Positions 10,165 through 64,000 of a DNA stretch of 64,000 nucleotides are shown piece by piece. The stretch's first letter is position 1, and every line of letters begins with the position of its first letter. This DNA comes from an uncultured Candidatus Saccharibacteria bacterium (lineage in GTDB: Bacteria; Patescibacteriota; WWE3; UBA101185; 2-01-FULL-41-18). The stretch spans positions 67,666 to 131,665 of the forward strand of contig CAZWQF010000004.1 of NCBI GenBank assembly GCA_964636285.1. Direction: 5' to 3'. A program made the translations under genes and the position numbers. The notes beneath the pieces are model-generated. The model saw only the letters and a list, made by a program, of their open reading frames with translations, was not told the origin of the DNA and made no database searches.

Positions 10165-13100
10165 TTAATTTATGAGCCACCAGTTAATTGTGGTATCTGA
10201 AGATTGAGAGGCATCAATTAGCACTTCAAACTCGTTGTCTGACAGAATCTTGTATGCAACTGACAATGGCTTATCTTTTGAGGTTACAAACACGAGTGAC
10301 TTTGATGTCAACTTATTGCTTGTAACTTTGACACTCTTGCTACCTGCTTTGATAACTGCACTACCAAGAGCTGCGTTTTGGTTTACATTATCGTCAGCTG
10401 AAACTTGTGAGACATTTAGCTTTTCTATAGAAAGGCTATTAATTACCCCTTCTTCAGCCTCAACCGAGTCAGCTACAAGCTTAACTGCAGTTATGGCCCC
10501 ATCGTTTGAAATTACAACTTTTCCGTTGAAAATGTCCAAGTCTCCTGCAAGAACGTCTGACTGAAGCTTAAGAGTTCCGATTGACGATATTGATTGATCT
10601 GCATCACTTATTGTCAAAAGCCCTACAGTTAATTTACCGGCAACATTAAGATCCGAAAGGAACGACTGCCCTGCCACCCTCAAATCTCCAAGGACTCTTG
10701 CAAATTCGTTGACTTGAAGGCTCTTAACACTTGAGCTGGCTGAAAGCTCAGCTGACTCTGAAGATTCAGAAAGTTCAGAGCTTGATGTAGCTTCGAATGA
10801 TTCGCCGGTAAGAATCTTAAGCGTAGCCTTAAGCGAATCAATTTGAGACTGAAGATCTGTTGCCTGATCTTTTGTGGCAAATTCGTCTGAAAGATTATCA
10901 CCTTCTCTAACATCAGTCGAAAGGGCTTCTGCTGAATTTGAAGATTCAAGAGCAGAAAGCTGACTCTCAAGAGCCAAAATCCTACCTGAAAGCGAATCAA
11001 TCTTTTCGTTTAATGAAGTTGCAACTCCAGAAATTATCGCCTGTGCTTCATCTTTTGAATTTGAAACTCCAAGGGTTCTGTCTATATCTGAAAGCTTAGC
11101 GTCAACTTCTGCTTTTGTATAAGCCTCAGATGTAAGTGATCCTCCATCTGTTAGCGTCATCATAGAGTCAGGAGATGCCCAGTTTGTTGAAACAACCATT
11201 AGCACTCTGTCTTTTGAATCGCCTGGGTTCCAGAATTCAATTGCTCTTCCAAGCATAATTCCTGATTTTGTTGCTTTTTTGGCCATTCCTACAGTTGTAG
11301 AAGATGTAAGATAATCGCCTGGCACAATTGGATCTGAATCTGGTGATATCTTAACGGGAACTCTTCCTGAAATTGCTACTTTTGCGGCTGAGTTGAATTT
11401 ACCACCGCCAACTATGAGGGAAGAATCGGTTGAGATAACACCTAAGAGCTTTCTGTCACTCTCTATTGAAGAAAGCGTAATCTGACCGTTATCGTTAAGT
11501 GATACAACATCACCTGGTTTTGCTTCTGCATATGTTTCAATGTCTCTTTGGTACATCTCTGATATATCTGAGGTTGTCGTCATATCAATACCGCCAGCAA
11601 GACCATCTAAAACCGACGGCTGTGAATTAGCCTGTGTAAGCGAGCTGGGCTCAGGATCGTCCTGCCACGTCCTAACATAATCTATATCATTATTCTCAGA
11701 AGTGGTGTCCGAAGTCTCTGTCTTAAGCATAATATCCATGAGTGTTGTTGCACCGGGAATATTAGTTGTTTTTGAGACTGCTGTGCCGTCCACAGAACAA
11801 ATTACTTGAGGTGTTGTACCATTCTGAAGCCAAACTCTGAGTCTCTGGAATGTTGTTGTTGAGATATCAACACCAGTGCTAGTCACTGATTCGGTTGTCC
11901 CATCAGATGTTATACACTGCCAGGTTGTATCGGCTGCTCTCTTTCCAATATAAGCATGAGCACCTGTAAGAGTGTCAGAACCTGAACCTGGAACAGCTGT
12001 TGAAAGTCCAAAGAAAGCTCTTTGTGAGCCATTTGTATCAGTTCCAAGCTTAACGCTTGTTTCAAATACTGGGTTATTTTGTCTTTGGTAAAAGCCGTTT
12101 GTTAATGTAGCCTGAGTTGAGGTATAGCAGGCACCTGGATTTGTGGTACCAGTTGTATGCCTGAGAACCCCATTAACTACGGCAGTTTGAAATGTGAAGT
12201 TACATGTGGCAGCTCCCGTGGCAGTGGGATTTTGCCAATTATTTGTATCTAACATCCTTCCCATGAAATCATCCTGAAAAGTATTCATACCCTGCATATT
12301 TATAAAACCTTTTACAAGCTCTAGGTTAAAGTAACCTGTACCTGCATTTCTGACATTTAGAGTTGTGTAGTTGTTTGTGTCTGTTGAAGCTCTGTTCCCT
12401 ATAGCAATAGTGGCAGCGTTTGAAGTCGTGGAGTTAATAGTATCAAACATAGCTGAGTAATTTGTGTCTGCACCTGATTGGCCCGCAACATATAAACCAT
12501 ACTTTGTGGATGTTCCATTTGTTGAGGAAGTGCCATTGGCTACGTAAACTCCGTATGAATTCACAGTTCCAGATCCAGATCCTTGGGAAGCTGAAGCTGA
12601 AAAATACCCAGCGTATGCATTTGTGGTGGAAGTATTATACGAGTTTGAAGCAGATACACTGTAGTAACCCCCATACAAGGTCTTTGAACCTCCATCAACT
12701 AAACCAGAATTTGTCACAGTTGTATAATCACCATACATATTCAGGCCACTGATGGTTTGAGTGCTTGAAACAGTATTTCTCAAGCCACTTATTGTACTGC
12801 TGGATGAAGCGCTTTCATCAACGCTAGTAGATAAGTACATATTAGTAGAATAATTAGAAATAGATGGAAGAGCTGTCAAAAACGACTCTATAAGCCCTGT
12901 GTTTGCGGAGGCTGAATTAGAGTAACCGGTAGCTAAAATTGCAGACCCTGTAGTTGCAGATGATCCAATGTCGGCCCTGATGACATCTCCCGTAGTATTT
13001 GTTGAACCTATCGCCCAGATATAACTATCATCATCGCTATTTAATCTTATATCTCCGCTTCCATTTGGCGTAATTGCCAGATCTTCATTTGTACCTGTGG

Positions 13101-16100
13101 ACAAATCAACAGTCATTCCTGAAAGCACTAAGCCTGTATCAGAATCTCCAGAAAGCACATGATTGCTTGAGGCAGACACATCTGAAAGCACCAAAATATC
13201 ATTTCCATCTGTTGCAGCGTCATCTTCAAAGGTCCATGTTCCCCCATTCGCAATCTTAAAAACCGTTGTTGTATCAACTGAGTAAAGATTTGCGTCCCAT
13301 CCAGATCCAAGAGTTACGCCGTACTCTGTGCCTGCTCCAGGAGTAATTGAGGAGACATTAAGACCGTTTAAAGTTCCCGCAGAAATACCGTAGGCTGAAA
13401 CTCTAATACCATTGTTCACAAGTGTGCTGGCAGCACCGGATTGAATAGTGCTAGCTCTTAACGAACTAATTGTACATGCCCCTGAAGCACACCCTGTGAT
13501 AGTTGGAGATGCTGCTTCAATAGATGATACGTCTTTAGTACCAGCACCTGATGTATTTATTGTAGGAGCAACATAAATACCTGATGTTGACGAGTTACCA
13601 GTAGTGTTGGTAGACGCATCTGTGAAAGCTAGATCCAAATATCTTGCTGACTCAGCAGCTGTATGCACATAACTTGCTGTAGAAAGAGTTAAAACGGGTT
13701 CTGTTGTTCTTGAAGTTGCAGAGGGGTATATTTCAAAATTCCCTGTTCCTGTGAGATCAGACACTATGCTTCCCGCGTTAAAAGTCCTAAGTGTCAAATC
13801 ATTGCTCTCAAAAGATTCTCCTGCTTCAAGGTACAGAGGTGCATTGGACTTTATGTAAGAAGCTGTCTGGTTTGTAAACTGAAGATCATATGCTATAGAC
13901 ACGTCACCAGCCGCTGTAAACGAATGTGGAAGGGCAGATGTAATGCCGGTTTCAGAAACTGAGAAGAGTGATGTACCGTTGTCGGTCACATTAAAAAGGT
14001 TTCCTGATGTAGACCCATTCGAACCAATATTAATCCTGAACAGATCTCCTGTAGCTGTAGCTGAAGAGCCTGGTGACCAGTCAAAATACCCAAGCGATCC
14101 GCCTGTGGTTGCAGTTGTCAGTGCAGTAGACTGAGACATAACATTTAGGATTGTGCCTGTTGACAATGTGTTTGCAGAGCCTGTAGTCAGATCCATTAGC
14201 CTACCAGTTGTTAATGAGGAAGAATTAAAGTAGGCACCTGTTCCAGAGGTTAGTGAATTGTTTGAAAAGACCCAAGAAGAGGATGTGGTTCCAGTTGTTG
14301 CAACAGCAGATGTAAAAACTTGAGAACCTGTAGTTGTGGTTAAGTTAAGTGCCCCTACCCCATTCGGTTGAATTGTAAGCGCCTCGTCTGTATCAGCCGT
14401 GGTGATTGTTGCAGAGGAATCATTCAAGCCAAGTGTAAGATCTCCAGTAGAGAGTAATCCTGAATTAGAGTTATCTGTAAGGGTAAGAAGAGAATTTGTG
14501 TTATCTGAAATTGTTAGCGTTCCAGTGTCAGCAATAGAAATCGAAGGGGTTGTTGAGGTCAGGTCTATTTCGTTTCCAGTGCCAGAATTTGAAAGCCTTA
14601 GCGTATCGATATCTCCTGCGGCCTGCTGAGTTAAGCTCATCATAAAAGACGAATCCGTACCTGAAGAGGATGGATTTGTGAAGACTATAGAATCATCCGT
14701 ACCTGAAAGCGTGACAGTAGCATCCGATCCATCTGCGTCGTTAGAGTAAGCTTGCTGGAAAGTAGTGGACGCCCCAGATACATCAGTCCAACCCGATGAA
14801 GTGTACATGTAAAGCCTATCGTCATCCGAGTCGTACGCAAGGTATCCTTCTCCAGTTGATGGGTTTGAAAAAGAGGCAGCTTGTGGAAGTCTTAATCCTT
14901 GAGAAGCTGTAGATCCATATGTTATTGAGCCAAGATCAATATATCCAGTGTTTGGTAACGAAAGGGTTGCCGCTGCTCCATTGTCTGCAATGGTTAGAAG
15001 GTTTTGTGTTCCATCATTAATTGCGAATGTCTCACCGCTTGCAATTCTCATAGTTGGTGTTGTGCCAGCAAAATACATTTCGTAATCCCAGTTGCTACCA
15101 ATATACAATCCAGTACCCACTGCCTGAGGATCGGCTGTGATGCTATTTACATACATGCCGTAAACATTATTTCCAGTACCTGTGTGATCTCTCGCCGGAG
15201 GGTTAACATATATACCAGACTGGGAATCATTGCCGTCCATTGGAATATTAATTGAGTACTCTGGGCCATCTATAGTTAAAGTAGAAATGAACTGAGATCC
15301 AGAGAAATCTGACCCAGTTATGTAATTTCTGAATACGTGGCTAGTTGGCCCTTCGTAATAAAGATTGTCTGTTGCTGCTATAAGCTGAGAATACTTTGTT
15401 GAACCAGGATCAATCGATAGAGAACCATCAATACTAACATCACCACCAAGCGTTATTGTCCCATCCGTATTGTTATCAATTGTCTCTCCATTTTGAAGTC
15501 TAATATCAGTTGTTACTCCTGTAGAAGCAATGTTAAGTGCTGTTGTGATTGTCTGGGCTCCAGATCCAATTGTAATAGCATTTGTTAAAGCTCCTGCTGA
15601 GTTTGTAATATTAACTCCATTTGTTAGTGTACCTGCTCCTGATTGGTCAAGAAGGATACCATTGGTTTTTGTTCCTGATGTATGTGAAGAAGAAAGCTGA
15701 ATGAGCTCTCCCGTACCTGCGTTTGAGATCTGAAGAGCATCTTGTGTTCCAGTGGCTAACTGATCAATGTTTAAAAGGTAGGCGGAGTCTGTTCCAGATG
15801 CTGCTGGGTTTCTAAAGATTAACGAATCATCTGCTGATGTTAAGGCTACTATTGTATCTGATCCAGCAGCATCATTTCCATACGCCTGCTGAAGAGTTGT
15901 TGAAGCTCCGTTTACTGAAACCCAGGAGGAACCATCATAAGCATAAAGAGCGTTATCATCTGCATCCCATGCAAGGTAACCTTCTCCTGAAGTTGGGTTA
16001 GTAAATGAGTTAGCTTGAGGAAGTCTAAATCCTTGATTTGCTGAGGAAGCGTGAGTTACAGCTCCAAGGTCTAAAAATCCTGTTACGCTACTTAAAGTCA

Positions 16101-19100
16101 AACTTGTGGAGGCTGTGATTGCGTCTGAAAAAATGAATCTTGGACTTGACCCAGCAGAGTCAAGAGTAAGAGACCCATCCGCATTTGCAGTAAATGTTGT
16201 AAGGTTAGCCCCGTCAATGCCATCGTCAATAATTAACGTATCTCCTGTTCTGAAATCATATCCATAGACACCAGCCCAAGCATCGGTAGGAGACCCTAAA
16301 GCGTAATAATTATTCCCATCAGGAACAATTGTACCTGCCATAGTAATACCATCGTTAAAAGCAAAACCAGCCCCTGACCCAGCAGCATCAAAAGTAACCG
16401 TTCCTGACCCAGCAGATCCTATTGTTAGATAATAAGTACTGTCATATGCAACTCTTAGCTGAGGGGACGTGGTGCTTCTAACCTCAAGCTTGTTTGCTGT
16501 ACCACTTGAGCCCGTTCCGATACCTACATTCCCCACAAGGTATGAATTTGAAGTTGATGTTGAATAAAGTGCATACCTGCCGGTAGAACCCACATCAATG
16601 GAGGTGTCCATATAAAGGCCGTAGGATGTATTCACAGTCCCAGAATTTGACCAACCGTCCATCCTAACTCCATACACTGTTGGCATTGTTGTAGTGTTGG
16701 CAATTTGCGAAAGAATACCCGTAGCTGAAGTAGAAATTGATCCAGTACCATTAGCCGAAACTCTTCCTTGAACTCCAATTGCAGTACCAATTGAGCCTGA
16801 TGAAGCCAAAAGACTTCCATAGACTCCAGTTGCTGTTGTGATAGATCCCGCACCTGAATTTGCAATACCAAAGTAACCTGATGTTGCTGAGCCTTTTGAG
16901 CCTGATGTTGCTGAGTTTGTTACAGTGGAGCTTACACCATACAGAAAGTTTGCTAGTGTTGTACTGTCTGTTACATTTGAATTAACCCCAACCACTGCAT
17001 TCGCTTCAGTACTCGGAGAATTTGTTAAATCCACTCTAATTCCATCTCCATACCCTAGAGCAGTCGTAGTGTCTACTGTCCCTGAAATTAACAAGGCAGC
17101 GCCAGTATCGTTTATATCTGTTGTAAGTTCAACTAAACCATTTGTTACTCCTGAAGTCCCACCTGAGGGGCCGTTTAATGCCACAGCACTTCCAGAAGTT
17201 AAAGATGCAGCAGTAATTGTATGTGCATCAGTTGTTGTACCTGTATATGTCTGAGTGAATGCCCCAGCTCCTGATGTCATTGTGAAGTTTGCTCCTGCAT
17301 CAAGTGTCACTGCGTTTAATGTTGAGGATGAATCCACATTTAAGGTTGAGGTTGTTGAGATTGCAGTTGTTAAGTTATCAATTCCTGTTTCACCTGTTAA
17401 GGTACCATTTGTTGTAACCGTAACAAAGTTTGAGTTTATAGGTGCATATGTGTTTGCCAATGTTGTTCCGTTTTGGGTAACTGTGTTTACATAAAGGTTA
17501 TCCCATGGAGTTGAGGAAGAACCAAGGTCACTAACTCCTGTTGTTCCTACAGGAATTAGATCATTATCAGTTTGGATAAGTCCATTTACTGTTATTACAT
17601 CAGCAGAGTCACTTCCTAAATTTACGTTCCCATTCGCAACAAAAGCTCCGTTTGCTGTTAACTGCCCTGTTGTGGTCAAAGTGCTGCTTGCTGTGACACC
17701 CTTCGCAAACTCAATTGAATTTGCCACTGCTGCGGTTGTATCAATGTAAAGCCTTCCAGTATTTGTTACATCAAAAATAGCGTATGCACCTGTACTATAT
17801 GCAAGTCTAAATTGAGGCTCTGTTGTGGATAGAACTTCGAGCGGGTTATTAGGATCAGTTGTTCCAATACCAACATCTCCTGCCCCTTCGATTCTTATTC
17901 TCTCTTGGTTATTTGTACCAAGAACTAGTGGTTGCGAAGTAGATGTTCCAACACCCATTCCAAGGTTTGATGCTCCTCCTGCTACTACAAAGTATTTGTC
18001 TGCTCTATCAAGCCCAAAGTAGTCAAAGGATGTGTACCCGGTGCCTCCGTAGAATATACCTCCGTACGATGCCAGCGTGCCTCTGCTGTTTTCAAGGAAG
18101 AGTGCTGCCTGTTGAACATCTGAAGTGCCTGTGGTCTGAATCCTTGCCATGCTTGCGGCTGAGTTGACCACGTCAAGCTGATAGTCTGGGGCGGCTGTGC
18201 CAATTCCTATTCGATCACTGCTGGCGTCTACTGAAAAGGTACTTCCATCAAACGAAAGGCCATTTATCCCACCTGTAAGTGTAAAATCTGTATCGTTTGC
18301 TACAGTTACTGTAGCTGCATTAAGAGTTAGAGTGTCTCCTGACGCGTTGCCTATTGTTGTATTTCCGTTTGATGTAAGATCCCCTGCTAATGTTAATCCA
18401 CCTGTTGAGGTAAAGTCAGTGCCTGAGTTTCCAATGTTAACTACTGTGTTTGCATTAAGATCAATACCATTGGTCATTGTTCCTGTGATGTTAAGTCCTG
18501 TGGTTACTGTACCTGCTGTTCTTGTTAAGTTAAGAAGATTTGTGATGGTACCAGCTCCTGTTTGTTCGATGAGAGCTCCGTTTGTTGTAGATCCTGCTAC
18601 GTTTGCTAGAGATACTTGAAGAGCTTCTCCTGTACCAGCGTTTGAGATCTGAAGAGCGTCTACTGCTCCTGTTGCTAACTGATCAAGATTCATAAGGTAT
18701 CCAGAGTCTGTACCAGATGCTGCTGGGTTTCTTAGGATAAGTGAATCATCTGCTGATGTTAAGGCAAGTATAGAGTTGGAACCATCCGCATCGTTATCAT
18801 ATGCATTTTGTAGTGTTGTAGATGCTCCAGAGACATTCTGCCATGAGGATCCATTGTATGCATAGAGAGCATTATCGTCTGCATCCCAAGCAAGGTAACC
18901 TTCTCCTGATGTTGGATTGGTAAATGAGTTTGCTTGAGGAAGTCTTAAACCTTGGTTTGCTGCGGATCCATGCGTGATTGCAGAGAGATCTATGAATCCT
19001 GTGTTTGGTAACGAAAGAGTTGCAGCTGTTCCATTGTCTGCAATGGTTAGAAGGTTTTGTGTTCCATCGTAAAGAGTAAGTGTGGAAGCATTAGCCAACT

Positions 19101-26346: not shown

Positions 26347-26387
26347 TATATTTTTGCGCCGTTGCGCTAAAATTTGGTGATACATTG

Positions 26388-26415
26388 AGTATAGAACCGC
26401 ACCAAAAAATGTCAA
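26388..26415 (-). promoter_or_regulatory. Sigma70-like promoter for the giant gene
   Basis: Minus strand: TTGACA (26415-26410), 16-nt spacer, TATACT (26393-26388), ~40 nt upstream of ATG 26346. Confidence 0.5.
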
Positions 26416-26579
26416 CAATTTAGTGTTATAGAATCAAGGTTTATAAATACTATGGGTACAAAATGAACTATGAAAAGTTAGGAATTTCTGAGAGGTAACT
26501 GAGATTTTTTTAAGGGTTTTTAATCTTGATGTGCGTACGGCTAGTCTCTAATTAAACATTAAACGTGGTGATTCAGGTG

Positions 26580-35142: not shown

Positions 35143-36147
35143 CTACTTCTTGGTGAGGCTTTTGTTGTACAGCTCAAGGTTATCAAGAGCTATTGCAATA
35201 CCTTTTACAACACACAAAAGTGGGCTATCAGCAACGTGCGCTGGTACAGATGTGGCCTGAGAAATAAAGGAGTCCAGATTCCTGAGCTGGCTAGTTCCCC
35301 CGCTAAGTACAAAACCCTTATCCAAAATATCAGACGACAACTCAGGGGGTGTCTGTTCCAAAACCGACCTAATTGCAGACACTATCTGAGACAAGGGGCT
35401 CTGAATTGCTTGGCTGATTTCAGTGGATGTAACAGTAATAGTTTTGGGTAAACCGGAGATAAAATCCCGCCCCCTAACCTCTAGTGTCTCTTCTTTAGCC
35501 AAAGGATAGGCACTTCCTATCGTTTTTTTCACGTCCTCAGCGGTCTTATCGCCTACCAGCAGTCCGTGCTTTCGCCTGATATGTTGGCTTATAGCCTCAT
35601 CTATCTTGTTTCCAGCCACCCTAATACTTCCGTAAGCCACCAAACCATATAGCGAGATAACGGCTATTTCGCTTGTCCCACCTCCAATATTTACAATCAT
35701 ATTGCCCGAAGGCTCTGAAATAGGAAGCCCCGTCCCAATCGCTGCAGCAAGAGGCTCAGGAATCAAATAGGCACTTTTTGCTCCAGCAGAATAAGCCGCA
35801 TCAAGCACAGCCCTAGCCTCAACTGAGGTAACCCCAGCAGGCACGGAAACCATCACATCAGGCCTAAAGAGCCTAGATCCCCCTATCGATTTGTTAATGA
35901 AATACCTAAGCATTGCCTCAGTTACGGCATAATCTGCAATAACACCATCCCTTAAAGGTCTACAGGCCGTAATGCCCTCAGGGGTTTTTCCAAGCATATC
36001 CCTAGCATCGTTACCCACGGCCACAACTCTCCCGTCGTCATCTGAAACAGCCACAACTGTAGGCTCATTCAGAACGATGCCCCTTCCAAGAACATACACC
36101 AAAGAGTTTGCGGTGCCTAAATCTATTGCAATTCGTTTTCCAAACAT
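35143..36147 (-). CDS. mreB: Rod-shape determining actin homolog MreB
   Basis: IAIDLGTANSLVYV N-terminus and actin-fold motifs throughout, 334 aa. Confidence 0.9.
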   Translation of the reverse strand: MFGKRIAIDLGTANSLVYVLGRGIVLNEPTVVAVSDDDGRVVAVGNDARDMLGKTPEGITACRPLRDGVIADYAVTEAMLRYFINKSIGGSRLFRPDVMVSVPAGVTSVEARAVLDAAYSAGAKSAYLIPEPLAAAIGTGLPISEPSGNMIVNIGGGTSEIAVISLYGLVAYGSIRVAGNKIDEAISQHIRRKHGLLVGDKTAEDVKKTIGSAYPLAKEETLEVRGRDFISGLPKTITVTSTEISQAIQSPLSQIVSAIRSVLEQTPPELSSDILDKGFVLSGGTSQLRNLDSFISQATSVPAHVADSPLLCVVKGIAIALDNLELYNKSLTKK

Positions 36148-54197: not shown

Positions 54198-54198
54198 G

Positions 54199-55448: not shown

Positions 55449-55452
55449 TTGT

Positions 55453-56035: not shown

Positions 56036-56099
56036 CTTCTTCCCTCGTTCAGTTAAAGAAACACCTACCAAGCTTTCTTTAGCTAAATGAAGAAAGAGT
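56036..56099. repeat. Island repeat R1, copy b
   Basis: Direct repeat of 55385-55448, upstream of ORF e and adjacent to the right island border. Confidence 0.7.
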
Positions 56100-56375: not shown

Positions 56376-59093
56376 ATGTCTAAGTACTCACCTACTCAGG
56401 ACGACTTGGAATCCGATCAGAGTATAAAAATTGAAGAACAAAGAGCTACAATCGAATCTGTAGAAAAAATCCTAGTATTACTTGAAAATTTTGAGTTTGA
56501 GGAAGCCATGTATCTCAAGGAGGAAATCCTTCAAACTCCAAGTGATGACATCACAGAGATCCTTAGATCAGATGAGGAGCTTAGGCAGCGTGTGCTTGAC
56601 ACCATAAATCTCTACGCAACTAAATATTCAGCTAAAAAGTATTTACTAAACGAGGAACATTTGGAAACCTACGTGAAAACCAGGAATTTGATAAAGATTT
56701 TTGGAGTTGCACCAGATATGTATCCTGAAAGTATTGAGAATGCGATGGTGAGAACAATAAAAGCACTCTCGGTACATGATGGCTTTGCAACAACATTAGG
56801 AAGGTGTGAGGAACTCCATCTAGAAAGGGCACCGCATGTTTATGACACAGTCAGAAAAACACTTTATGAGTGCGCAGTGGAACAACCAATAATCTATGGC
56901 TCGTCTGATGAAGCTTTCATGTATACAAGATGTATTGAAATAATGGCCAATTTATATGAATACAAGGATGAAGAGATATCAAACCTACTTACAGAAGCGT
57001 TTATACATCCACTAGATGACTATGCAAACTGGTCTCGTGAAACTCGTATTGTAATGAGCGCAGTAGAGTACTTTGGCGTAGCTGATCCCGTTTATTCAAA
57101 TCCAGAGGTAATAAGCCACGTTAGAGATAAATTCGTATACTTTATAGAAAGTGACACAACAGGAATTCCAGAATACATAGCTGAAAAGTGCGCGGTACAG
57201 CTGGATGTTCAAGCTCCAGAATACCCACATGGCATGACGTATGCAGACTTAATTAAAGTAAGAGGCTCCGATGAGGCGGCAGGTAAATGGAACCTTAAAA
57301 GGATGCGTGGGTTAACCTATCTTGTGAAATCAGATGCGCTGCAAATTATTGCAGCACAAGGAGACGGGGCTTCTCATTACTTCCATGAGATTTCAAAAGG
57401 TATCCCCTCTTCTAATCAAGTAGAGCGAGAAGAAATAGAATTTTATGTTTATATTGCTAAAAAGTATGGGGTGCAGGCTAGATCGGTATTGGTAAATCTT
57501 GTAAACCGAAAAGGTACTGACATAGCAGATCAAAAAGCTGATATAGACATTTATATGGCATCTGTCGGAGTACCAGATCAAAAGCTTCTCGATGAATTCA
57601 AACATACGGAACAAGACCCAATAGCGCGAGAGGCGTTAGTAAGTAGGGTTAATACAATGAAAAAAGGGGCAATTGATGCAGATTCAGATTCGCTATGGCA
57701 ACCGGGTGGAGTAGCAGTTTTATATAGTGTTTTTCCTCCAACCTCTTCGGTAACATCTGCAGAATATCAAAGAATGTTATCTAACAGATGTGACTACAGT
57801 TTAGATGCAAATTTATCAAACATAAATAATAGGAGAGTAAGAGTACCTACGGGTAGATTAATGTTTGAATCCGGGGCAGAACTTGACAGAGACCTCTGGG
57901 ACTTGATTAACAACGCGATTGAAAATGCTAATACAAACCCGGCAGGATCGATAGATTCAAATGCAATTGCATTAAAACTTATTAAATCTGCCGTTTCTGG
58001 ACAGGAAGCCGATCAAGACTTGATAGAGCTTTTATACAGATTTCATTTACAAAGCGGTGGCGCTAAAGTGGAGCCAGCTGAAGACTCCTCTTATCAATCA
58101 TTAGCAAGGCTCTCTGAGTTTGTGAGAACAGAGATTGCTGGAAAATATATCCCGCAGGTACTCCAAACTTATTCACAAGAACATGCCGAGGAGTGGGCAC
58201 AGATAGAATCAGAGCTATTTAACAGAGTTAAAAAAACTAGGGAAAAGGATTTTGCTAGAGTTAAGAGTCTAATGCTAGGGTTAAAAAAATCAAAAAACCC
58301 TAGCGATGCTGAAAGATCTACTCAGATGCTACAGGAGACCCTGGAAAAATACGCATTATCTATTGCTGAGGCACAGATAATGGATGAAGATAGATTAAAA
58401 TCAATGATTGAAGCAGTCCCAGTGACTGAAGATGAAGATATACAGAGATCCGAGGACTACTACAACTCCCCTGAATTTCACAGGGCTTTAGATAAATTTG
58501 AAGAAAAGTACGATAGAAATAAGCTGGCTATAGGTAAGATCAGAGATCAGGCGATGAACCCTTTAATTAGATCCATGAACACAGAACTTGGAAAATTTAC
58601 TACCGAAGGTGATATAGAGGAGGAATCCAGAGAATTAGAATTAATTATAACCAAAAAACATGCTCACTCTATTGCAGGTTTCAATATGGGCGTGTGCACC
58701 GTGATTGATGAAGACCTGTGGGACAACCCAAACTTTATGAATTGCATCCTAGTAGATAGGGACAGAAACCTTGGGTTAGGTGGCATGCACTTGTTTGTCG
58801 CTGGTGGATACCTCACACTTCCAGGAATAAATCCATCAAATGAAGCGTTATCCAACGTAGAGTTAGGCAACCTAACGGATCAGATGCTTGAGTACTCTAA
58901 AGAAGTTGCTCGAGCCCTAAATTTAAGGGGAGTGCTTATACCCACCGACAAGTATATCGCTTCGAACAGGTCTAGGGTTTACTCATATCTGGAGGATCAA
59001 AAGTGGCCAAAGCTGAGATTACCAGCCCCAGTACACTTTGCAACAGTTGGTAACACATCTTACGAAATTAGAGACTGCTGGGTAGTTAAATAA
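56376..59093 (+). CDS. Large (905 aa) hypothetical cytoplasmic protein, mostly alpha-helical, with possible Cys/His C-terminal domain
   Basis: AT-rich, host-like codon usage. No signal peptide. C-terminal segment IAGFNMGVCTVIDEDLWDNPNF...LGLGGMHLFVAGGYLTLPG has a conserved-looking Cys/His pair. Confidence 0.5.
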   Translation: MSKYSPTQDDLESDQSIKIEEQRATIESVEKILVLLENFEFEEAMYLKEEILQTPSDDITEILRSDEELRQRVLDTINLYATKYSAKKYLLNEEHLETYVKTRNLIKIFGVAPDMYPESIENAMVRTIKALSVHDGFATTLGRCEELHLERAPHVYDTVRKTLYECAVEQPIIYGSSDEAFMYTRCIEIMANLYEYKDEEISNLLTEAFIHPLDDYANWSRETRIVMSAVEYFGVADPVYSNPEVISHVRDKFVYFIESDTTGIPEYIAEKCAVQLDVQAPEYPHGMTYADLIKVRGSDEAAGKWNLKRMRGLTYLVKSDALQIIAAQGDGASHYFHEISKGIPSSNQVEREEIEFYVYIAKKYGVQARSVLVNLVNRKGTDIADQKADIDIYMASVGVPDQKLLDEFKHTEQDPIAREALVSRVNTMKKGAIDADSDSLWQPGGVAVLYSVFPPTSSVTSAEYQRMLSNRCDYSLDANLSNINNRRVRVPTGRLMFESGAELDRDLWDLINNAIENANTNPAGSIDSNAIALKLIKSAVSGQEADQDLIELLYRFHLQSGGAKVEPAEDSSYQSLARLSEFVRTEIAGKYIPQVLQTYSQEHAEEWAQIESELFNRVKKTREKDFARVKSLMLGLKKSKNPSDAERSTQMLQETLEKYALSIAEAQIMDEDRLKSMIEAVPVTEDEDIQRSEDYYNSPEFHRALDKFEEKYDRNKLAIGKIRDQAMNPLIRSMNTELGKFTTEGDIEEESRELELIITKKHAHSIAGFNMGVCTVIDEDLWDNPNFMNCILVDRDRNLGLGGMHLFVAGGYLTLPGINPSNEALSNVELGNLTDQMLEYSKEVARALNLRGVLIPTDKYIASNRSRVYSYLEDQKWPKLRLPAPVHFATVGNTSYEIRDCWVVK

Positions 59094-59150: not shown

Positions 59151-59882
59151 ATGCAAAACTCAATGAACCCCAAACTTAAAAGGGTTCTGACGTCTCTTGG
59201 CGTTGTCCTCTTAATAGCGCTTGCCGCGGCCCCTGCTTACTACTTTTACCAAAAGTACCAAAGGGCTCAGTCACTTGTTCGAGATCCTGAAATGGCTTTA
59301 AGAGAAGAAAAAGCCGACCTTTTAAAAACTGTTTCAAAGCTAATCCAACTACCAGCATCAGAAGAACCTACTATTGCAACCGTATCCGATGTTGAAAAAA
59401 TTAAGGATCAGCCCTTTTTTGCAAAGTCTCAGAACGGCGACAAAGTAATAATTTATGCTCAAGATAAAAAGGCGTACCTCTATAGACCTTCGGAAAAAAG
59501 ACTTGTTGATGTGGCTCCAATAAATTTAGGAACACAGGAGGTTGCAGGTGCAAACACAACGCAGGAGAACATAACTTTAAGATTAGCTTTGTTTAATGGC
59601 ACTCAGATTAACGGCCTGACAAAACAAGTAGACATAAAACTTTTAAAGAATGTATCCTTAAGTTACGAAGTAGTGACGCGAAAAAACGCAGTTAAGACCA
59701 ACTACGCAAAGACCCTTGTGATAGATCTTAGTACTGATGAAAGTGGAAAAGGTAAGTTTGCAGATCAAGCAAAAGAAATTGCAAATGCACTTGGAGGAGA
59801 GGTACTAGCACTCCCACAAGAAGAAGCAAAACCAGAAGGAGCCGATATTTTAATTATTGCAGGCCCTAACCTTCAAGACTAA
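59151..59882 (+). CDS. Membrane-anchored LytR_C (LytR/CpsA/Psr C-terminal)-like domain protein
   Basis: N-terminal TM, then a C-terminal ~90 aa with LRLALFNGTQINGLTKQV...TNYAKTLVIDLSTDESGK...ADILIIAGPNLQ, resembling the LytR_C fold pattern. Confidence 0.55.
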   Translation: MQNSMNPKLKRVLTSLGVVLLIALAAAPAYYFYQKYQRAQSLVRDPEMALREEKADLLKTVSKLIQLPASEEPTIATVSDVEKIKDQPFFAKSQNGDKVIIYAQDKKAYLYRPSEKRLVDVAPINLGTQEVAGANTTQENITLRLALFNGTQINGLTKQVDIKLLKNVSLSYEVVTRKNAVKTNYAKTLVIDLSTDESGKGKFADQAKEIANALGGEVLALPQEEAKPEGADILIIAGPNLQD

Positions 59883-59886
59883 TCTG

Positions 59887-60144: not shown

Positions 60145-60299
60145 ACTGAAAATTGAACACACTATACCCTGCAAAAATACTCATTGTAGGAATATTTAAT
60201 ACTACAAAATAAACTATTGCATAATTCAATCCCATAATGCTAATATCTAGAAATTGAATCCACATCATTTCGCCCCACAACGGGAAATGACACAGATTT

Positions 60300-63200
60300 A
60301 TGACAACTGCCCAAAATGTACTCAAATCCAATGATGCTGCAAAGAAGCTTGGAATTTCCAAGTCTACATTGCTTCGTTACCAAAAAGAGGGCCTTGTCAC
60401 TGCAACAAAAAACCCCAAAACGGGCTATCAATATTTTAACCTTGAAGACATTAATGCGCTTAAAAAAACACTCTCAGAAACCGAATCGGATAGAAGAGCG
60501 GAGATTGCCAGAAAAAGAGCTGGAAGAAGCGCTATATATCAGCAAAGCCACCCATCAATTAAGGTAGAAGATACCGCAGTTGACCCAAAAATAAACAAGG
60601 TTGAGACCCAAATAAAACCACTAAACAGTAAAAAAACTAAGTCAGGAGAACAACAGACTGCAAAATCAAGACTTAGGGAAAGCTCTGAAGCAGATGGCTT
60701 GTTAAACAATCCCCTCTCATCAATACCCTCCTCTACTCCATCTGAAATTGAAAAGCTTGAGGAGCTCAACCTTAAGACCGCAAGAATGGTCTCAACCATT
60801 AGAAATCTTCTTGTTATTGTTGCAATAGTCATAATGCTAGGCATTCCAGCAATTCTTTATTTTTCCACAGGTACAAACATGATCTTCTTCACCCAGCAGG
60901 GAGATTCTAGTAAACAGATGGGAGTTAAGGAAAACGCACAAGCCCAAAACAGCGGAAAAAACGGAGGAGCCGGAAATGTATACCCAAGCGCTGGAGAAGG
61001 AAACGGAAATACAAACGACAAAGGCCTTACCATCCCAACTGAAAATTCAGGAGGCGGCCCTGTTTCTGCTTTTTTTAACTTTTTTGGCGGTTCAGGCCCA
61101 ACAAACAATTCGGATATTAATGAGATCAATATTTCAGACAACCCGCATTTCAATTCGGTTACAACAAATTCCCTTAACGCTTCAAACATAGACACTGACA
61201 GCCTAGATACACAAAGCATTAAAGCCTCAGGGACATCATATTTTGCCGGAGCAGAATTTTCTGGACAAGTTAGCTTAAACGGAGGCGCTACTTTTGGAGG
61301 CGATATAAATGCACAAGGAAAAACGCTCAATCTTGGCGACGGAAAACTCACAGCATCAAATGTTTTATACGGAATAAAGGCTGGAGACGGCGTCACCATA
61401 ACAGGAGAGGCGCAGAACCCAACAATTAGTGTGGATTTGGCAGGTCTTAATTCGCAACTCAAAGAAGAGGTTGTAACAACATTTCAAGGCCTAACCGGAG
61501 CTGTAACACTTAAAGCTGGAAACGGTGTAAAAATCTCTGGCACAGAAATAACAGTTGATGCAACCATGACAGAGATTCTAGAAAATGGTGACTGCAGTGG
61601 CTGTATTTATAACGAAAACATCAGCGACGCTCTCACTATCTCCGATGCAGGAAGTGTTTCCACACTCGCACTTGTAGGTGCTGTGGGAACCGCAAAAGGA
61701 GGCACAGGAATTACCGATTACGCACCAGGTGACATTTTATATGCTTCTGGAGCAGACATTCTCTCAAAGCTTCCTGTGGGCTCTACAAACCAAGTGCTTG
61801 CAATCATTGGTGGGATGCCAACATGGACAACGCTAGCTGGAGGTGGAAGTTGTCCTGAATGTTTGATCAACAATCCGGTGTCAACTCAAACTATCTTGGC
61901 AAGTGCTACTAGTGCGATTGGGCTTTCTATTGAGCAACCGTCTGGAGGAACTGCGGATGTGTTCCGTGTCACAAATTCCGGAGGCGGAACAAGCTACATG
62001 CGAATAAATTCCTCAGGAAATGTTTTGCTTTCAGGAAGTTTAAATGCGAATGGGGTTGTGACCTCTTCCCTTTCGGCAACATCTAGTACCGTGACAACTG
62101 AAAATGTCACGAATTTAACGGTTTCATCAGGCGTTACTTTCTCTGGAATCTCAACTGGCGTTTTGAAGTCATCTTCAGGAACAATTTCATCTGGAAGTGT
62201 TAATTTGGCTTCAGAAGTAACTGGAACGCTTGGTGTTAACAGAGGCGGTACTGGGACTGCTACTTTCACCTCAAATGGACTTTTATTCGGTAATGGCACG
62301 TCAGCAATTGGGGCAACTACAGCAGGAACAGATGGTCAACTTTTGGTTGGAGTGACGGGCTCTGCTCCAGTATTTAGAAGCCTTTCAGGTGATGCAACCA
62401 TCAATAGCACAACAGGTGTACTCAGTATTTCATCAGATTCGGTTACATTGGGTACAGATACAACAGGTAACTATGTGTCCGGTATCACAGCAGGAAATGG
62501 ACTTATCGGCACTGTAGCTAGTGAAGGTGCTAATGCTACTCTTAATATAGGAGCAGGAAATGGAATCACAGTTAATGCAGACGATATTACAATTGATGCT
62601 ACAACAACAGGTACAACTGCAACTGCATCTTCCAACTCTGGTATTGAAGTTACCTCCGAAGGTATAAGACTTCTTGGGGGATGTACAAATAACTATGTTT
62701 TGGCATGGGTTTCAGGTGGGGGCGGAGCGTGGACATGCACAGACCCTAACACATTATTTTCAGGCGGGTATGCCAGCTGGACTGTATCTGACGGATCAGC
62801 AAGCGAAGCCGTTGCATCAGGCAATACAGTCACATTTAGCGGAGGCAACGCACTAACTGCTACTTACAACACAGGCACAAACACCCTAACAATTGATCAC
62901 GACGACACTTCTTCACAGGCTAGTGTGGACAACTCCGGCGCAAACTTTATACAAGACATACTACTTGATGCAAATGGCCATTTAACAGGGATCGTAACGG
63001 CAGATGCGGCGGTAGCACTTTCGGGCTCCTTTGATAATTATCAATCCTGGTCACTTGTAAGTGATGCCGGAGGAATAAATCAAACAATTTCCAGTGGAAA
63101 CTCAGCAAATATTCTTGGTGGAACAAACGGTATAGATACAGTAACCAGCAACACAGACACGCTTACAATTAACCTAGACACCACAGAGATTGGAACAACA

Positions 63201-64000
63201 ACATTTGGATCTGGAAGTGACTTCGCATGGACATTTGGGTCAAGCGCTGTGACCGACCCTACCCTAGCCTTTACCTCAGGCGCTGTCAGTTTGGATTCGA
63301 ATGGAGCAGTTAATGTTACAACAGGCTCTGCTTCAGATTCGTTTAATGTGTTGTCTGGAAATATAAAAGTTGGAAACGGAACACCTAATACAACACTTAA
63401 TGGCGAAGATCTTTATGTTGAGGGCACGCTGGAAGCTGATGGAAGCGTAAGATTTGACGGAGCTATACAGACAGCGCTTTCATCCGGAGTCCTCTACTCT
63501 AATTCTGGAACTGTAACAAGTGAAGCTCAGCTTGATGTAACAAGAGGAGGTACAGGCGCCTCCACTTTGACAGCGAACAGCCTATTATTAGGAAACGGAA
63601 CATCTGCTATTGGTGTGGTTAGCGCAGGATTAGATGGGCAACTTTTAGTTGGAGTGACGGGATCTGCTCCAGTTTTTAGAAGCCTCTCAGGAGACGCAAC
63701 TATCAACAGCGGAACTGGAGCGCTAACAATTTCTACGAACGCAGTAACTCTAAGTACTGATACAGCAGGAAACTATATTGCAAACATTACAGGTAGTTCG
63801 CAGATAACTGTTAACGGTACAGGATCAGAAAACGCCACGGCATCACTTAGCATCACAGGGAACTCGGTAGACTTTACGCAACTTGCCAATTCGCTTTCAC
63901 TTGATGCTTCTACTGATATAGCTGTTACCGGTTCAAATGTTTTGTCTGTCACAAATTCAGGAAGCGCAAACTCCTTTGTAGTTAATGACCAAGCCTCCGA
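60300..64000 (+). CDS. Third giant surface-protein paralog (3'-truncated by window end) with N-terminal MerR/excisionase-like HTH + TM
   Basis: Hand-translated frame from ATG 60300 is open to the window end. It is absent from the ORF track because it has no stop. HTH: NDAAKKLGISKSTLLRYQKEGLVTATKNPKTGYQYF. TM: LLVIVAIVIMLGIPAILYF at ~60801-60857. Downstream is a T/S/G-rich ectodomain with segments near-identical in pattern to the 16-kb gene (GGTGITDYAPGDILYASGADILSKLPVGSTNQVLAIIGG...GSCPECL). Candidate promoter TTGCAT-18-TAATAT lies at ~60215-60245. Confidence 0.8.
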   Translation, partial: MTTAQNVLKSNDAAKKLGISKSTLLRYQKEGLVTATKNPKTGYQYFNLEDINALKKTLSETESDRRAEIARKRAGRSAIYQQSHPSIKVEDTAVDPKINKVETQIKPLNSKKTKSGEQQTAKSRLRESSEADGLLNNPLSSIPSSTPSEIEKLEELNLKTARMVSTIRNLLVIVAIVIMLGIPAILYFSTGTNMIFFTQQGDSSKQMGVKENAQAQNSGKNGGAGNVYPSAGEGNGNTNDKGLTIPTENSGGGPVSAFFNFFGGSGPTNNSDINEINISDNPHFNSVTTNSLNASNIDTDSLDTQSIKASGTSYFAGAEFSGQVSLNGGATFGGDINAQGKTLNLGDGKLTASNVLYGIKAGDGVTITGEAQNPTISVDLAGLNSQLKEEVVTTFQGLTGAVTLKAGNGVKISGTEITVDATMTEILENGDCSGCIYNENISDALTISDAGSVSTLALVGAVGTAKGGTGITDYAPGDILYASGADILSKLPVGSTNQVLAIIGGMPTWTTLAGGGSCPECLINNPVSTQTILASATSAIGLSIEQPSGGTADVFRVTNSGGGTSYMRINSSGNVLLSGSLNANGVVTSSLSATSSTVTTENVTNLTVSSGVTFSGISTGVLKSSSGTISSGSVNLASEVTGTLGVNRGGTGTATFTSNGLLFGNGTSAIGATTAGTDGQLLVGVTGSAPVFRSLSGDATINSTTGVLSISSDSVTLGTDTTGNYVSGITAGNGLIGTVASEGANATLNIGAGNGITVNADDITIDATTTGTTATASSNSGIEVTSEGIRLLGGCTNNYVLAWVSGGGGAWTCTDPNTLFSGGYASWTVSDGSASEAVASGNTVTFSGGNALTATYNTGTNTLTIDHDDTSSQASVDNSGANFIQDILLDANGHLTGIVTADAAVALSGSFDNYQSWSLVSDAGGINQTISSGNSANILGGTNGIDTVTSNTDTLTINLDTTEIGTTTFGSGSDFAWTFGSSAVTDPTLAFTSGAVSLDSNGAVNVTTGSASDSFNVLSGNIKVGNGTPNTTLNGEDLYVEGTLEADGSVRFDGAIQTALSSGVLYSNSGTVTSEAQLDVTRGGTGASTLTANSLLLGNGTSAIGVVSAGLDGQLLVGVTGSAPVFRSLSGDATINSGTGALTISTNAVTLSTDTAGNYIANITGSSQITVNGTGSENATASLSITGNSVDFTQLANSLSLDASTDIAVTGSNVLSVTNSGSANSFVVNDQAS

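Follow-up and report, generated by a model that had tools for sequence, protein, structure and literature searches.

Giant tail-fibre-like proteins of CPR bacteria carry a MerR-type winged helix-turn-helix ahead of a single membrane anchor

Results

Two giant proteins, G1 and G3, encoded in the 64-kb stretch of DNA analysed here (the window), carry an N-terminal MerR-type winged helix-turn-helix (HTH), with its family assignment and fold established by profile matches and structure prediction. In both, a basic linker and one transmembrane (TM) helix lead from the HTH into a very acidic, T/S/G-rich ectodomain with paired cysteines, and Pfam, hydropathy and composition bear out this architecture, which a previous sequence-only reading had proposed. 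The fusion recurs in many CPR lineages and is not an artefact. In the literature we found no paper on a MerR-type HTH–TM–giant-fibre fusion and, as that reading had said, no described function for such an architecture. The likeliest function, which we put forward tentatively, is that the HTH tails contact DNA at the membrane and regulate transcription from there as transmembrane proteins; a tether that serves only to hold the nucleoid comes close behind.

The G1 frame and its winged HTH

G1 (5393 aa, 548 kDa, pI 4.05; 10165..26346, minus strand) is translated from a single ORF, and its frame stays open over 10165..26418, without the frameshift between HTH and TM/ectodomain that would have undone the proposed fusion. 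The ATG at 26346 is a sensible start, because the TTG at 26418 sits in a promoter-like TTGACA-16-TATACT site (26388..26415, minus strand), already pointed out in the earlier reading, read directly here and kept in the related contig L001. The next Met, residue 127, falls within the TM helix, so that no alternative start leaves the anchor intact.

The N-terminal segment, suspected from the outset to fold as an HTH, is predicted by Pfam, AF2 and Foldseek to be a winged HTH of MerR/Xis type at residues 9-62 (26161..26322, minus strand). Specifically, residues 11-48 matched Pfam MerR with 46.4 bits (cut-off 28.2) and MerR_1 with 35.1 bits (cut-off 21.6), and AF2 placed H12-19, H23-31, E37-39, E46-49 and H50-62 with pLDDT 83-90. 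Foldseek assigned the G1 model a probability of 1.00 to SoxR, GlnR, RacA, Xis and BldC, with E-values (4.7e-4 to 1e-2) that are weak because the model takes in the TM helix. Structure and profile matches together comprised the DNA-binding MerR-type domains of NmlR, CueR, SoxR, BrlR, GlnR, BldC, RacA and Xis, with RacA and BldC among the closest solved relatives. In the Pfam search only MerR-type and generic HTH models matched, and none was Trans_reg_C (OmpR/PhoB-type).

In the family alignment A3, whose proteins are 28-43% identical to the HTH of G1, residues S18, T21, R23, R24, G29, R35 and R42 are kept in at least 90% of the sequences, and the recognition-helix motif is near-invariant over very distant lineages; judged by sequence, the conserved residues are those common to the whole MerR family and are uninformative on specificity. 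The cytoplasmic part of G1 is without a C-terminal effector-binding domain or any further domain: the HTH is followed by a short predicted helix (64-87, AF2 pLDDT ~52-61), then by a disordered linker, the TM helix and the ectodomain.

The HTH of RodZ binds MreB and CbpM binds CbpA, and the fold could likewise contact a protein here and so connect the fibres with a scaffold in the cytoplasm or with the machinery of secretion/insertion. The structure matches of G1 include, at rank 50, the protein-binding MerR-like fold of CbpM, and MreB is encoded nearby (35143..36147). However, the HTH of RodZ is XRE-type and unrelated to the MerR type, the canonical MerR DNA-contact motif is retained, nearly all the solved relatives found are DNA-bound, and 89% of 310 HTH units have a positive net charge (mean +4.0), all of which makes protein binding in place of DNA binding very improbable.

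Charge and topology around the anchor

The linker of G1 (residues 63-116; 25999..26160, minus strand) is basic and contains the motif ERKFDIAKKRAGQSA, kept in G3 and in the homologue P0001; the invariant columns of alignment A1 in this region are R67, I71, A72, K74, R75, A76, G77, S79 and A80. The earlier figure of ~70 aa between HTH and TM helix has to be corrected to ~55 aa in G1 and ~100 aa in G3. TM helices were called from Kyte-Doolittle windows above 1.6, and only one such peak was found in the 5393 aa of G1, at residues 117-146 (25909..25998, minus strand), where hydropathy and AF2 (helix 110-156) predict a single TM helix or type II signal anchor that includes the helix-destabilising residues G, S and N.

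Residues 1-116 of G1 have a net charge of +5. More generally, cytoplasmic tails range from +2 to +29, and ectodomains from -2 to -10 per 100 aa. This charge distribution fits an N-in/C-out topology, with the HTH on the cytoplasmic side as had been supposed.

Fibre features of the ectodomain

The G1 ectodomain (10168..25908, minus strand) consists, by composition, cysteines and charge, of acidic T/S/G-rich fibre modules (T 13.8%, G 12.1%, S 11.8% of G1; net charge -7.3 per 100 aa), with 7 close cysteine pairs, a C-terminal coiled coil and a terminal beta domain. Matches to phage tail-fibre and structural proteins were short; the AF2 monomer of residues 183-670 was poor (mean pLDDT 60), and Foldseek with this model returned nothing significant. 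Domain searches found Peptidase_S74 at the extracellular C-terminal end of the HTH-bearing homologues P0037, P0142, P0022, P0091, L022, L028 and L037, and collagen repeats also occur in HTH-bearing homologues; the same searches found no S74 in G1 or G2, and the C-terminus of G3 lies beyond the window. Because HTH-bearing homologues have S74 and collagen repeats, the ectodomains are probably trimeric tail-fibre-like adhesins. From these homologues we infer trimerisation of G1 and G3 themselves, G1 being at best a non-S74 member of such fibres. The label 'megadalton', previously given to the ectodomain, would suit a trimer only and not the single 548-kDa chain.

A relationship with the MAT (mosaic adhesive trimer) fibres of Bdellovibrio is probable. 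These are likewise mosaic, module-swapping fibres with S74 and non-S74 members (PMC10769870), and related loci labelled Bdellovibrionota have the same ectodomain motifs as the giant fibres. The signal peptide of MAT fibres is cleaved off, and an N-terminal domain docks them on the surface of a diderm cell (PMC10769870), whereas the N-terminus of the G1 type is predicted to stay in the cytoplasmic membrane and can bear a cytoplasmic HTH. All 10 Bdellovibrionota-labelled loci with a complete N-terminus lacked an HTH.

A DNA-binding domain, a TM helix and an S74 chaperone in one chain (P0037, P0142, L022, L028, L037) also recall, by analogy only, MyRF, a membrane-bound transcription factor of eukaryotes whose S74/ICA domain derives from phage and whose DNA-binding domain is Ndt80-type. 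In MyRF the S74/ICA domain is cytoplasmic, lies between the DNA-binding domain and the TM helix and self-cleaves to release the former. In the fibres, by contrast, S74 is extracellular and C-terminal, far past the TM helix, the DNA-binding domain is MerR-type, and there is no sign of release by self-cleavage. A Notch-, RsgI- or MyRF-like mechanism, in which host binding or load leads a protease, such as a site-2 protease, to cut within or close to the TM helix and the soluble HTH then regulates genes, would draw on this likeness, on the S74–MyRF link noted in the MAT paper (PMC10769870), on the G, S and N residues of the G1 anchor, on an M50-family protease gene in the window (2415..3086) and on the control of the transmembrane regulators TcpP and CadC by proteolysis, as given in the available parts of the sources (PMC4388833, PMC11484849). 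However, the M50 gene lies within conserved ribosomal-protein synteny, unlinked to the fibre genes, the S74 domain, placed as it is, cannot free the HTH, and the linkers, variable as they are, showed no conserved cleavage motif. We consider such release improbable.

Paralogues and neighbours in the window

G3 (60300..>64000, plus strand) ends at the window edge after 1233 codons without a stop. Its HTH (residues 7-60; 60318..60479, plus strand) matched Pfam MerR_1 with 30.1 bits, and its single predicted TM helix (residues 160-192; 60777..60875, plus strand) has a hydropathy of 2.91. Identity between the two ectodomains, that of G1 and that of G3, is 50% over 517 aa and 71% over 233 aa, but only 36% over 97 aa between the HTH regions. 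The HTHs have thus diverged more than the ectodomain modules, which is compatible with different DNA specificities.

G2 (2152 aa; 45766..52224, plus strand) is a paralogous fibre with a Laminin_G_3 domain. As anticipated, it has ectodomain modules in common with G1 (47% over 175 aa, E 1.7e-25) and no HTH match, and starts with a plain N-terminal TM anchor at residues 29-58. Its residues 60-137 matched NCBIfam Bdello_MAT_N weakly (27.5 bits, under the cut-off of 60), a model with no match in G1 or G3. A sortase and four pilin-like genes, one with a weak PamT match, lie ~3 kb from G2. A gene for a 'tail fibre-like protein' co-localises with the CPR Pam pilus operon according to the available text of a preprint (bioRxiv 10.64898/2026.03.03.709456), and the context of G2 resembles the one described there; in locus L013 the HTH-fibre gene adjoins ATP synthase genes, a setting that the preprint reports. 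In that text the fibre gene is a neighbour only, with no anchor or HTH architecture described, and the term 'helix-turn' does not occur.

The view of the HTH as a swappable N-terminal module held good: related giants begin with HTH(s) and a TM helix or with a signal anchor alone, and one starts with a zinc-ribbon-like tail. The PQ-rich soluble protein (632 aa; 32188..34086, minus strand), said to be headed by the same HTH, does have an N-terminal HTH at residues 19-67 and no TM helix by hydropathy. This HTH is of the HTH_17/excisionase type (Pfam HTH_17, 34.6 bits, cut-off 27) and only marginally like that of G1 (38% over 40 aa, pairwise E 0.003). By sequence, the PQ protein belongs to the same superfamily, outside the fibre family, with an HTH of a different subfamily.

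In addition, a small TM protein with a Pfam LytR_C domain (59151..59882, plus strand) is a recurrent neighbour of giant fibre genes; its homologues occur in 12 of 75 related loci, and in seven of these they share the strand of the giant gene and lie 114-958 bp downstream of it. The three fibre genes make up 41% of the window.

The fusion in other CPR lineages

An exhaustive HMMER search for the HTH family gave 1430 cluster representatives (50% clustering) at E<=1e-3. Among the best 150 of these 1430, the HTH copy number ranges from one to eight, with two copies in 113, three in 17 and eight in one; 36 of the 150 are proteins of at least 400 aa, and 30 of these 36 consist of HTH(s), one TM helix (two in P0137) and a T/S/G/N-rich tail of up to 4227 aa. 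The linkers between HTH and TM helix are long, K/S/P/E-rich and variable (3-269 aa, median 56). The survey of related genomes called for by the earlier reading found HTH+TM on giant homologues in 12 species-representative genomes; of the 61 N-terminally complete giant homologues in such genomes, 12 carry the HTH. Family members, including CPR surface proteins of 2000-4000 aa, are labelled 'MerR family transcriptional regulator' in databases.

Giant repetitive genes misassemble easily, and a small MerR-type gene might have been fused in silico to a fibre gene. However, the fusion occurs twice in the window, in sequences as diverged as G1 and G3. It recurs, with 82% identity and the same synteny, in P0001/L001, a JGI contig of independent origin, and further in the 12 species-representative genomes and in dozens of NCBI, ENA, JGI and Logan cluster representatives; the position of the first downstream Met inside the TM helix of G1 also speaks against it. 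Recurrence in independent assemblies effectively refutes an artefact, for which hardly any likelihood is left.

The tandem HTHs, up to eight, suggest multivalent DNA tethering no less than they suggest classical regulation. RacA anchors the B. subtilis chromosome to the pole and provides the model for a structural DNA–envelope tether, in which tails of low specificity and high avidity (1-8 HTHs in each of three chains) would hold the nucleoid, or part of the chromosome, at the membrane beneath the fibres. The arrays counted above fit this model, as do the long and variable linkers, the trimers, hence multivalency, implied by S74 and collagen repeats, the presence of RacA and BldC among the closest solved relatives, and the near-invariant recognition helix. 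So does P0002, a complete gene with eight HTHs and only ~100 residues outside the membrane, by which the HTH+TM module is seen, from sequence, on proteins with short extracellular parts too. On the other hand, G1 and G3 have one HTH each, many related fibres have none, the conserved residues are mute on specificity, and no repeated DNA site was identified. A tether in which transcription plays no part is, in our judgement, less likely than not, but only slightly behind the regulator reading.

Discussion

In the regulator reading, G1 and G3 would be host-adhesion fibres of a Saccharimonadia-like CPR bacterium. A single signal-anchor helix at the N-terminus would fix a tail-fibre-like ectodomain, encoded by 3-16 kb and probably homotrimeric, in the cytoplasmic membrane, and a short basic cytoplasmic tail with the MerR/Xis-type winged HTH would bind the chromosome on the inner side of this membrane via a flexible linker. 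The unreleased fibre would then act as a transmembrane transcription regulator by ToxR/CadC logic and, in the simplest version, its abundance, or its clustering on host contact, would feed back on its own or other envelope genes.

This reading is supported by the MerR-type HTH, assigned by Pfam and fold, with its conserved residues named above, by the positive charge of HTH units and tails as opposed to acidic ectodomains, by the recurrence of the architecture (1430 representatives; 30 of 36; 12 of 61), and by the existence of a recognised regulator class of DNA-binding-domain and TM proteins. According to the available part of a survey (PMC10269533), this class is widespread, 56% of its members being single-pass and 57% without another recognisable domain, and G1 and G3 fall within its broad definition, a DNA-binding domain with at least one TM helix. 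In the survey text neither CPR nor Patescibacteria is mentioned, 'MerR' matches nothing but the author name Merrell, and no giant ectodomains are described in the part available.

The analogy with ToxR and CadC made in the earlier reading stands at the level of DNA-binding domain and TM helix: ToxR, TcpP and CadC also carry their DNA-binding domain at a cytoplasmic N-terminus, cross the membrane once and have their C-terminal part beyond it, with no phosphorelay. The HTH is unrelated to theirs, as claimed, being MerR/Xis-type and often tandem where ToxR and CadC have the OmpR type, and the outside part is a 1000-5000-aa tail-fibre-like adhesin, probably a trimer, instead of a ~100-250-aa sensor. 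By sequence and fold, the domain resembles the winged HTHs of the MerR family, BldC, Xis and RacA, and BldC, Xis and RacA are, like G1, without the effector domain. Unlike these relatives, the G1-type HTH is covalently joined to a membrane anchor and a giant ectodomain, and in family members tandem repeats in one chain would replace dimerisation.

Several observations weigh against the regulator reading. A single TM helix under a fibre of ~0.5 MDa offers no obvious signal route, the canonical MerR effector domain is missing, and HTH copies from one to eight, together with a member with ~100 outside residues, look more like avidity tethering than like sensing. The G1 promoter-like site has a 16-nt spacer, and not the 19-20 nt of MerR-activated promoters. 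An operator search gave nothing convincing: the palindrome in the G1 5'UTR is weak (z -1.1), and the G3 hairpin (z -3.3) may act as RNA. In addition, the HTH is dispensable for fibre function, because paralogues with the same modules and no HTH exist (G2, most related loci).

A bolder version of the regulator reading, in which the fibres are direct adhesion-to-genome transducers and host engagement of the tip alters the clustering, tension or proteolysis of the anchor, and hence the action of the HTH array on DNA, is in our opinion unlikely. If true, it would be a prokaryotic counterpart of Notch/MyRF logic, made from a phage fibre and an excisionase-like HTH, and in CPR episymbionts, which are poor in conventional sensors, a single protein would connect host contact with gene expression.

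The family is open to experiment, since the tails with the HTH are small, soluble pieces and some Saccharibacteria can now be manipulated genetically (PMC10633639). A real MerR HTH on CPR giants would explain why pipelines label surface proteins of 2000-4000 aa 'MerR family transcriptional regulators'. A large part of bacterial diversity belongs to CPR/Patescibacteria, which live in attachment to other cells. Should the HTH bind DNA, one continuous polypeptide would join the chromosome, across membrane and wall, to the tip that binds the host, which can lie thousands of residues off, and would represent a new solution for transmembrane gene regulation or for nucleoid–envelope coupling.

Architecture of G1, G2 and G3

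The observation that the window encodes giant proteins combining an HTH domain, one transmembrane (TM) helix and T/S/G-rich repeats in a single chain is confirmed by continuous open reading frames, Pfam matches and hydropathy. Specifically, G1 occupies a single minus-strand frame that is open from 10165 to 26418. Since the earliest possible start, TTG 26418, falls within a promoter-like site (TTGACA-16-TATACT, 26388..26415), ATG 26346 is the sensible start, giving a protein of 5393 aa, 548 kDa and pI 4.05. The frame of G3 starts at 60300 on the plus strand and runs stop-free for 1233 codons to the window end. Each protein has exactly one strong hydrophobic stretch (residues 117-146 in G1 and 160-192 in G3), and is T/S/G-rich outside this stretch and the HTH. 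The paralogue G2 (45766..52224, plus strand) does, as had been claimed, share the ectodomain modules without the HTH: it carries an N-terminal hydrophobic anchor only, and the modules in common with G1 are 47% identical over 175 aa (E 1.7e-25). The ectodomains of G1 and G3 align with 50% identity across 517 aa and with 71% across 233 aa, compared to just 36% in the HTH region.

The N-terminal HTH domain

The N-terminal segments passed the curated Pfam thresholds, with 46.4 bits for MerR and 35.1 for MerR_1 in G1, and 30.1 for MerR_1 in G3. An AlphaFold2 model of G1 residues 1-160 showed two helices (12-19 and 23-31), wing strands (37-39 and 46-49) and a further helix (50-62) at pLDDT 83-90, and past residue 62 a helix of lower confidence (64-87), a disordered segment and then the TM helix. 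Foldseek comparison of this model with the PDB retrieved SoxR, BrlR, GlnR, RacA, mycobacteriophage Xis, BldC, CueR, NmlR and TipA, in agreement with the HTH fold that had been proposed; the same set was recovered by a sequence profile of 31 family HTHs (E 3e-8 to 1e-3).

In the alignment of these 31 domains, S18, T21, R23, R24, G29, R35 and R42 are kept in at least 90%, and identity of the aligned family HTHs to that of G1 is just 28-43%. The mean net charge over 310 HTH units is +4.0. We infer that the HTH tails bind DNA, given that the solved relatives retrieved are nearly all DNA-binding domains and that the conserved basic residues are kept; a role of the HTH in protein binding is improbable.

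The sequence-only reading had also placed the same HTH at the head of the 632-aa soluble PQ-rich protein (32188..34086, minus strand), and this part did not hold. The domain in question is of the HTH_17/excisionase type, resembles the G1 HTH only marginally (pairwise E 0.003), and is a different module of the same superfamily. In this protein, HTH_17 is followed by a P/Q-rich low-complexity region of about 430 aa and then by a C-terminal domain of some 130 aa, with weak NCBIfam matches to excisionase, MamR and BldC models. Its gene lies two genes from mreB and adjoins a WecG-family glycosyltransferase gene.

Topology and nature of the ectodomain

Neither G1 nor G3 has an N-terminal signal peptide. 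The 116-160 residues ahead of the TM helix carry a net charge of +5 in G1 and +8 in G3, and of +2 to +29 in eleven homologues longer than 1000 aa, while G1 beyond the TM helix has a markedly acidic net charge (-7.3 per 100 aa). In addition, this part of G1 contains close cysteine pairs, among others 305/308, 391/394, 649/667, 734/740 and 4286/4291, and closely spaced cysteine pairs are typical of extracytoplasmic proteins. Of the possible readings, only the predicted N-in/C-out orientation, with the TM helix as a type II signal anchor, fits both the charge and the cysteine evidence.

The AlphaFold2 monomer of the first G1 ectodomain modules was poor (mean pLDDT 60), with just two confident beta units of about 50 aa ('GGTG...GDILY'), and gave no Foldseek match in the PDB at E<=0.001; therefore, we make no fold claim from this model. 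Pfam gave almost nothing for the ectodomain of G1. G2 and the C-terminal half of G1 (2601-5393) had no match among PDB sequences, PHROGs had none to the G1 ectodomain, and Pfam at E<=1 detected no Peptidase_S74 (S74) in the C-terminal 600 aa of G1 and of G2.

The nature of the ectodomain is suggested by its relatives. Peptidase_S74 is the intramolecular chaperone through which phage tail spikes and fibres trimerise. Among HTH-bearing relatives, Pfam detected S74 in P0037 (50.6 bits) and, together with Collagen (47.6 bits), in P0142 (56.6 bits), and a local S74 HMM placed the domain near the C-terminus in P0022, P0091, L022, L028 and L037. Collagen-like runs occur in P0018, P0091, P0101, L022 and L037. 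A search of a large protein collection with the ectodomain found homologues that also bear PF13884, and all matches listed were at most 848 aa, with no giants among them. Short matches to phage tail-fibre and structural proteins were obtained as well. The G1 C-terminus has a coiled coil along with a terminal beta domain, and these resemble the stretch that follows S74 in L044. G2 residues 60-137 match NCBIfam Bdello_MAT_N weakly, and 14 related loci carry a Bdellovibrionota label.

All together, these data indicate that G1, G2 and G3 are probably mosaic, tail-fibre-like and homotrimeric adhesion fibres, the trimeric state of G1 and G3 themselves being deduced from their relatives, and that G1 and G2 are non-S74 members of the tail-fibre-like adhesins. 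They are akin to the mosaic adhesive trimer (MAT) family of Bdellovibrio (PMC10769870) and to the 'tail fibre-like protein' which a preprint reports beside the Pam pilus operon of Patescibacteria (CPR) (bioRxiv 10.64898/2026.03.03.709456). A prophage origin was rejected, as the genes on either side of G1 encode glycogen synthase, GH57 and GalT, phage structural genes are absent and the protein is membrane-anchored.

Recurrence of the HTH-TM module

With G1 1-200 as query, a word-indexed protein search matched the truncated orthologue P0001 alone, and an exhaustive HMMER search with the N-terminal profile of G1, G3 and P0001 (E<=1e-3) yielded 1430 cluster representatives. Among the best 150 of these 1430, two tandem HTHs were found in 113, three in 17, one in 16 and eight in one. 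A hydrophobic TM-like segment was present in 68 of the best 150, and in 67 of these 68 the first such segment lies past the last HTH, after a K/S/P/E-rich linker of 3-269 aa (median 56); the longest tail past the TM segment reaches 4227 aa (P0137). As for the HTH-bearing matches without a TM segment, 61 of 81 stop no more than 60 aa past the last HTH, and for this reason may be contig-end fragments. Such proteins are named 'MerR family DNA-binding transcriptional regulator [Patescibacteria group bacterium]' at NCBI, as in the case of MBN1162167.1 (2849 aa).

The extreme case of this HTH-array-plus-anchor module is P0002 (L078 2467-4338), a complete protein of 623 aa with eight tandem MerR-type HTHs, one TM segment and about 100 residues outside, which shows that the module is not confined to giant fibres. 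In L078, a separate TM protein gene lies 6 bp past P0002. A multivalent, RacA-like tether between DNA and envelope would suit the range of one to eight tandem HTHs, the flexibility of the linkers, the trimer that the relatives imply and the existence of an eight-HTH protein whose ectodomain is minimal; this reading is less likely than not, yet close behind a regulatory role.

A scan that took the ectodomain as its starting point and covered one genome per species yielded 75 loci, in 61 of which the N-terminus of the giant ORF is complete. One or more HTHs and a TM segment head 12 of these 61 (L010, L013, L017, L022, L028, L029, L037, L041, L046, L047, L049 and L070), and two further loci (L053 and L066) have a sub-threshold MerR-like tail. 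The L014 giant lacks an HTH and carries, before the TM segment, a CxxC...CxxxC zinc-ribbon-like basic segment, without a Pfam match in this N-terminal tail, and a proline-rich linker of about 230 aa, which suggests that other nucleic-acid-binding-like tails are also in use. The remaining N-terminally complete giants have plain anchors. Therefore, the survey of related genomes supports the proposal of a swappable N-terminal HTH module, and recurrence across cluster representatives and species-representative genomes excludes an in-silico fusion artefact.

No HTH was found in the ten Bdellovibrionota-labelled loci with a complete N-terminus, as expected if a diderm exports the whole fibre, while CPR keep the N-terminus in their sole membrane. 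Five of the 12 HTH-bearing loci (L013, L017, L029, L041 and L049) come from MAGs labelled 'uncultured Gammaproteobacteria'. L013 combines ATP synthase with the fibre, a context reported for CPR in the same preprint (bioRxiv 10.64898/2026.03.03.709456), and the membrane-anchored architecture also fits a monoderm-like envelope; these five labels are probably wrong. In conclusion, the HTH-TM-fibre architecture is widespread in CPR.

Genomic neighbourhood and upstream regions

The window is assigned to Saccharimonadia or its vicinity by the synteny of NusG, L1, L10 and M50 and by a NusG 66% identical to that of a Saccharibacteria MAG (L046), which likewise has an HTH-giant close by. The glycogen-metabolism surroundings of G1 recur in part, as the order of GH57 followed by the HTH-giant is repeated in an independent JGI contig.

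Just upstream of G3, a small TM protein (59151..59882, plus strand) carries LytR_C and a conserved domain (residues ~30-138). Homologues were found in 12 related loci, seven of which have them on the strand of the giant and 114-958 bp downstream of it; the loci with this neighbour include L004, L019, L022, L047, L050, L056 and L074. It is a candidate accessory or assembly factor for the giant fibres. G2 is preceded by a divergent gene (44613-45602, minus strand) for a 329-aa protein that ends in an ArsR-like winged HTH, and a 34% identical homologue (L041 8678-9622) has the corresponding divergent position ahead of an HTH-bearing giant; this protein may be a regulator dedicated to the fibre genes. 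About 3 kb from G2, a sortase gene is followed by four adjacent paralogous genes encoding about 350-400 aa each (37589-42932, minus strand). The gene at 41736-42932 gave a weak NCBIfam match to CPR_pilus_PamT and another of the four a weak Fn3-like match. The cluster probably represents a Pam-type CPR pilus operon, and its proximity to G2 parallels the 'tail fibre-like protein' of the preprint. As it is soluble and cytoplasmic, p905 (56376..59093) was rejected as a fibre partner.

No operator footprint was readable upstream of G1, where the sequence is about as conserved as the coding region in L001, the sole close relative, and a repeat finder detected no inverted repeats close to the start of either G1 or G2. 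Compared to shuffled sequences, the 5'UTR hairpin is no better for G1 (z -1.1) and better for G3 (z -3.3).

A 22-nt element, CCGGGAGACTAAAACCCGCATT, has four copies in the window, with none expected by chance: upstream of an L11-like gene and just after the L1 stop (4089-4110 and 5294-5315), just after the LytR_C stop (within 59883-59909) and, inverted, 150 nt before G3 (within 60123-60149). The latter two intervals form a 27-nt inverted repeat (93%) around 213 nt directly upstream of G3. This arrangement might represent a phase-variable promoter segment able to invert, an insertion of MITE type or an RNA hairpin with a regulatory role. If the segment inverts, the junction would read …AACCCGCATT joined directly to ATCATTGGATAAATTG….

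The 3.2 kb at 53210-56376 have no ORF longer than 139 aa and a GC content of ~48%, compared to ~41% elsewhere. This region gave no Rfam match (gathering threshold or E<=0.001), and no tandem repeats, and at the protein level it does not resemble the fibre genes. It contains a 67-bp direct repeat (94%) at 55385-55451 and 56036-56102.

Relation to known systems and possible function

Proteins combining a DNA-binding domain with a TM helix are an established class of regulators (PMC10269533). G1 and G3 qualify as transmembrane transcription regulators (TTRs) in the broad definition, but not as members of the ToxR/CadC family, since the HTH type is wrong. The interpretation of the sequence-only reading, which drew the analogy to ToxR/CadC, is partly supported. 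G1 and G3 are not canonical MerR regulators, whose mechanism is disfavoured because G1 lacks an effector domain and a clear dimerisation helix, and its promoter spacer is 16 nt. We tentatively rank first a membrane-bound regulator acting in the manner of ToxR/CadC, because the TTR class is established, MerR-type domains are overwhelmingly regulators and the HTHs of the paralogues have diverged beyond their ectodomains. This regulator might simply feed fibre abundance or clustering back onto transcription.

Release of the HTH by proteolysis is improbable. The set of DNA-binding domain, TM helix and S74 recalls eukaryotic MyRF; however, S74 in the present family is extracellular and C-terminal, and for this reason the MyRF release mechanism is inapplicable. 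Through the ectodomain, G1 and G3 are related to S74 and non-S74 tail-fibre-like adhesins such as MAT.

Literature searches within the library covered gave no description of the HTH-TM-fibre fusion, and neither did a TTR survey, a Saccharibacteria Tn-seq paper, a Patescibacteria perspective, a giant-gene preprint, and the MAT and Pam papers. A 'MerR' match in a T4SS review proved to be the surname Merryweather. The fusion is built from known kinds, namely TTR logic, a MerR/Xis HTH and a phage-like fibre. The HTH-fibre family, with its small HTH tails, merits experimental follow-up. If the HTH does bind DNA, then DNA would be physically tethered to the envelope.
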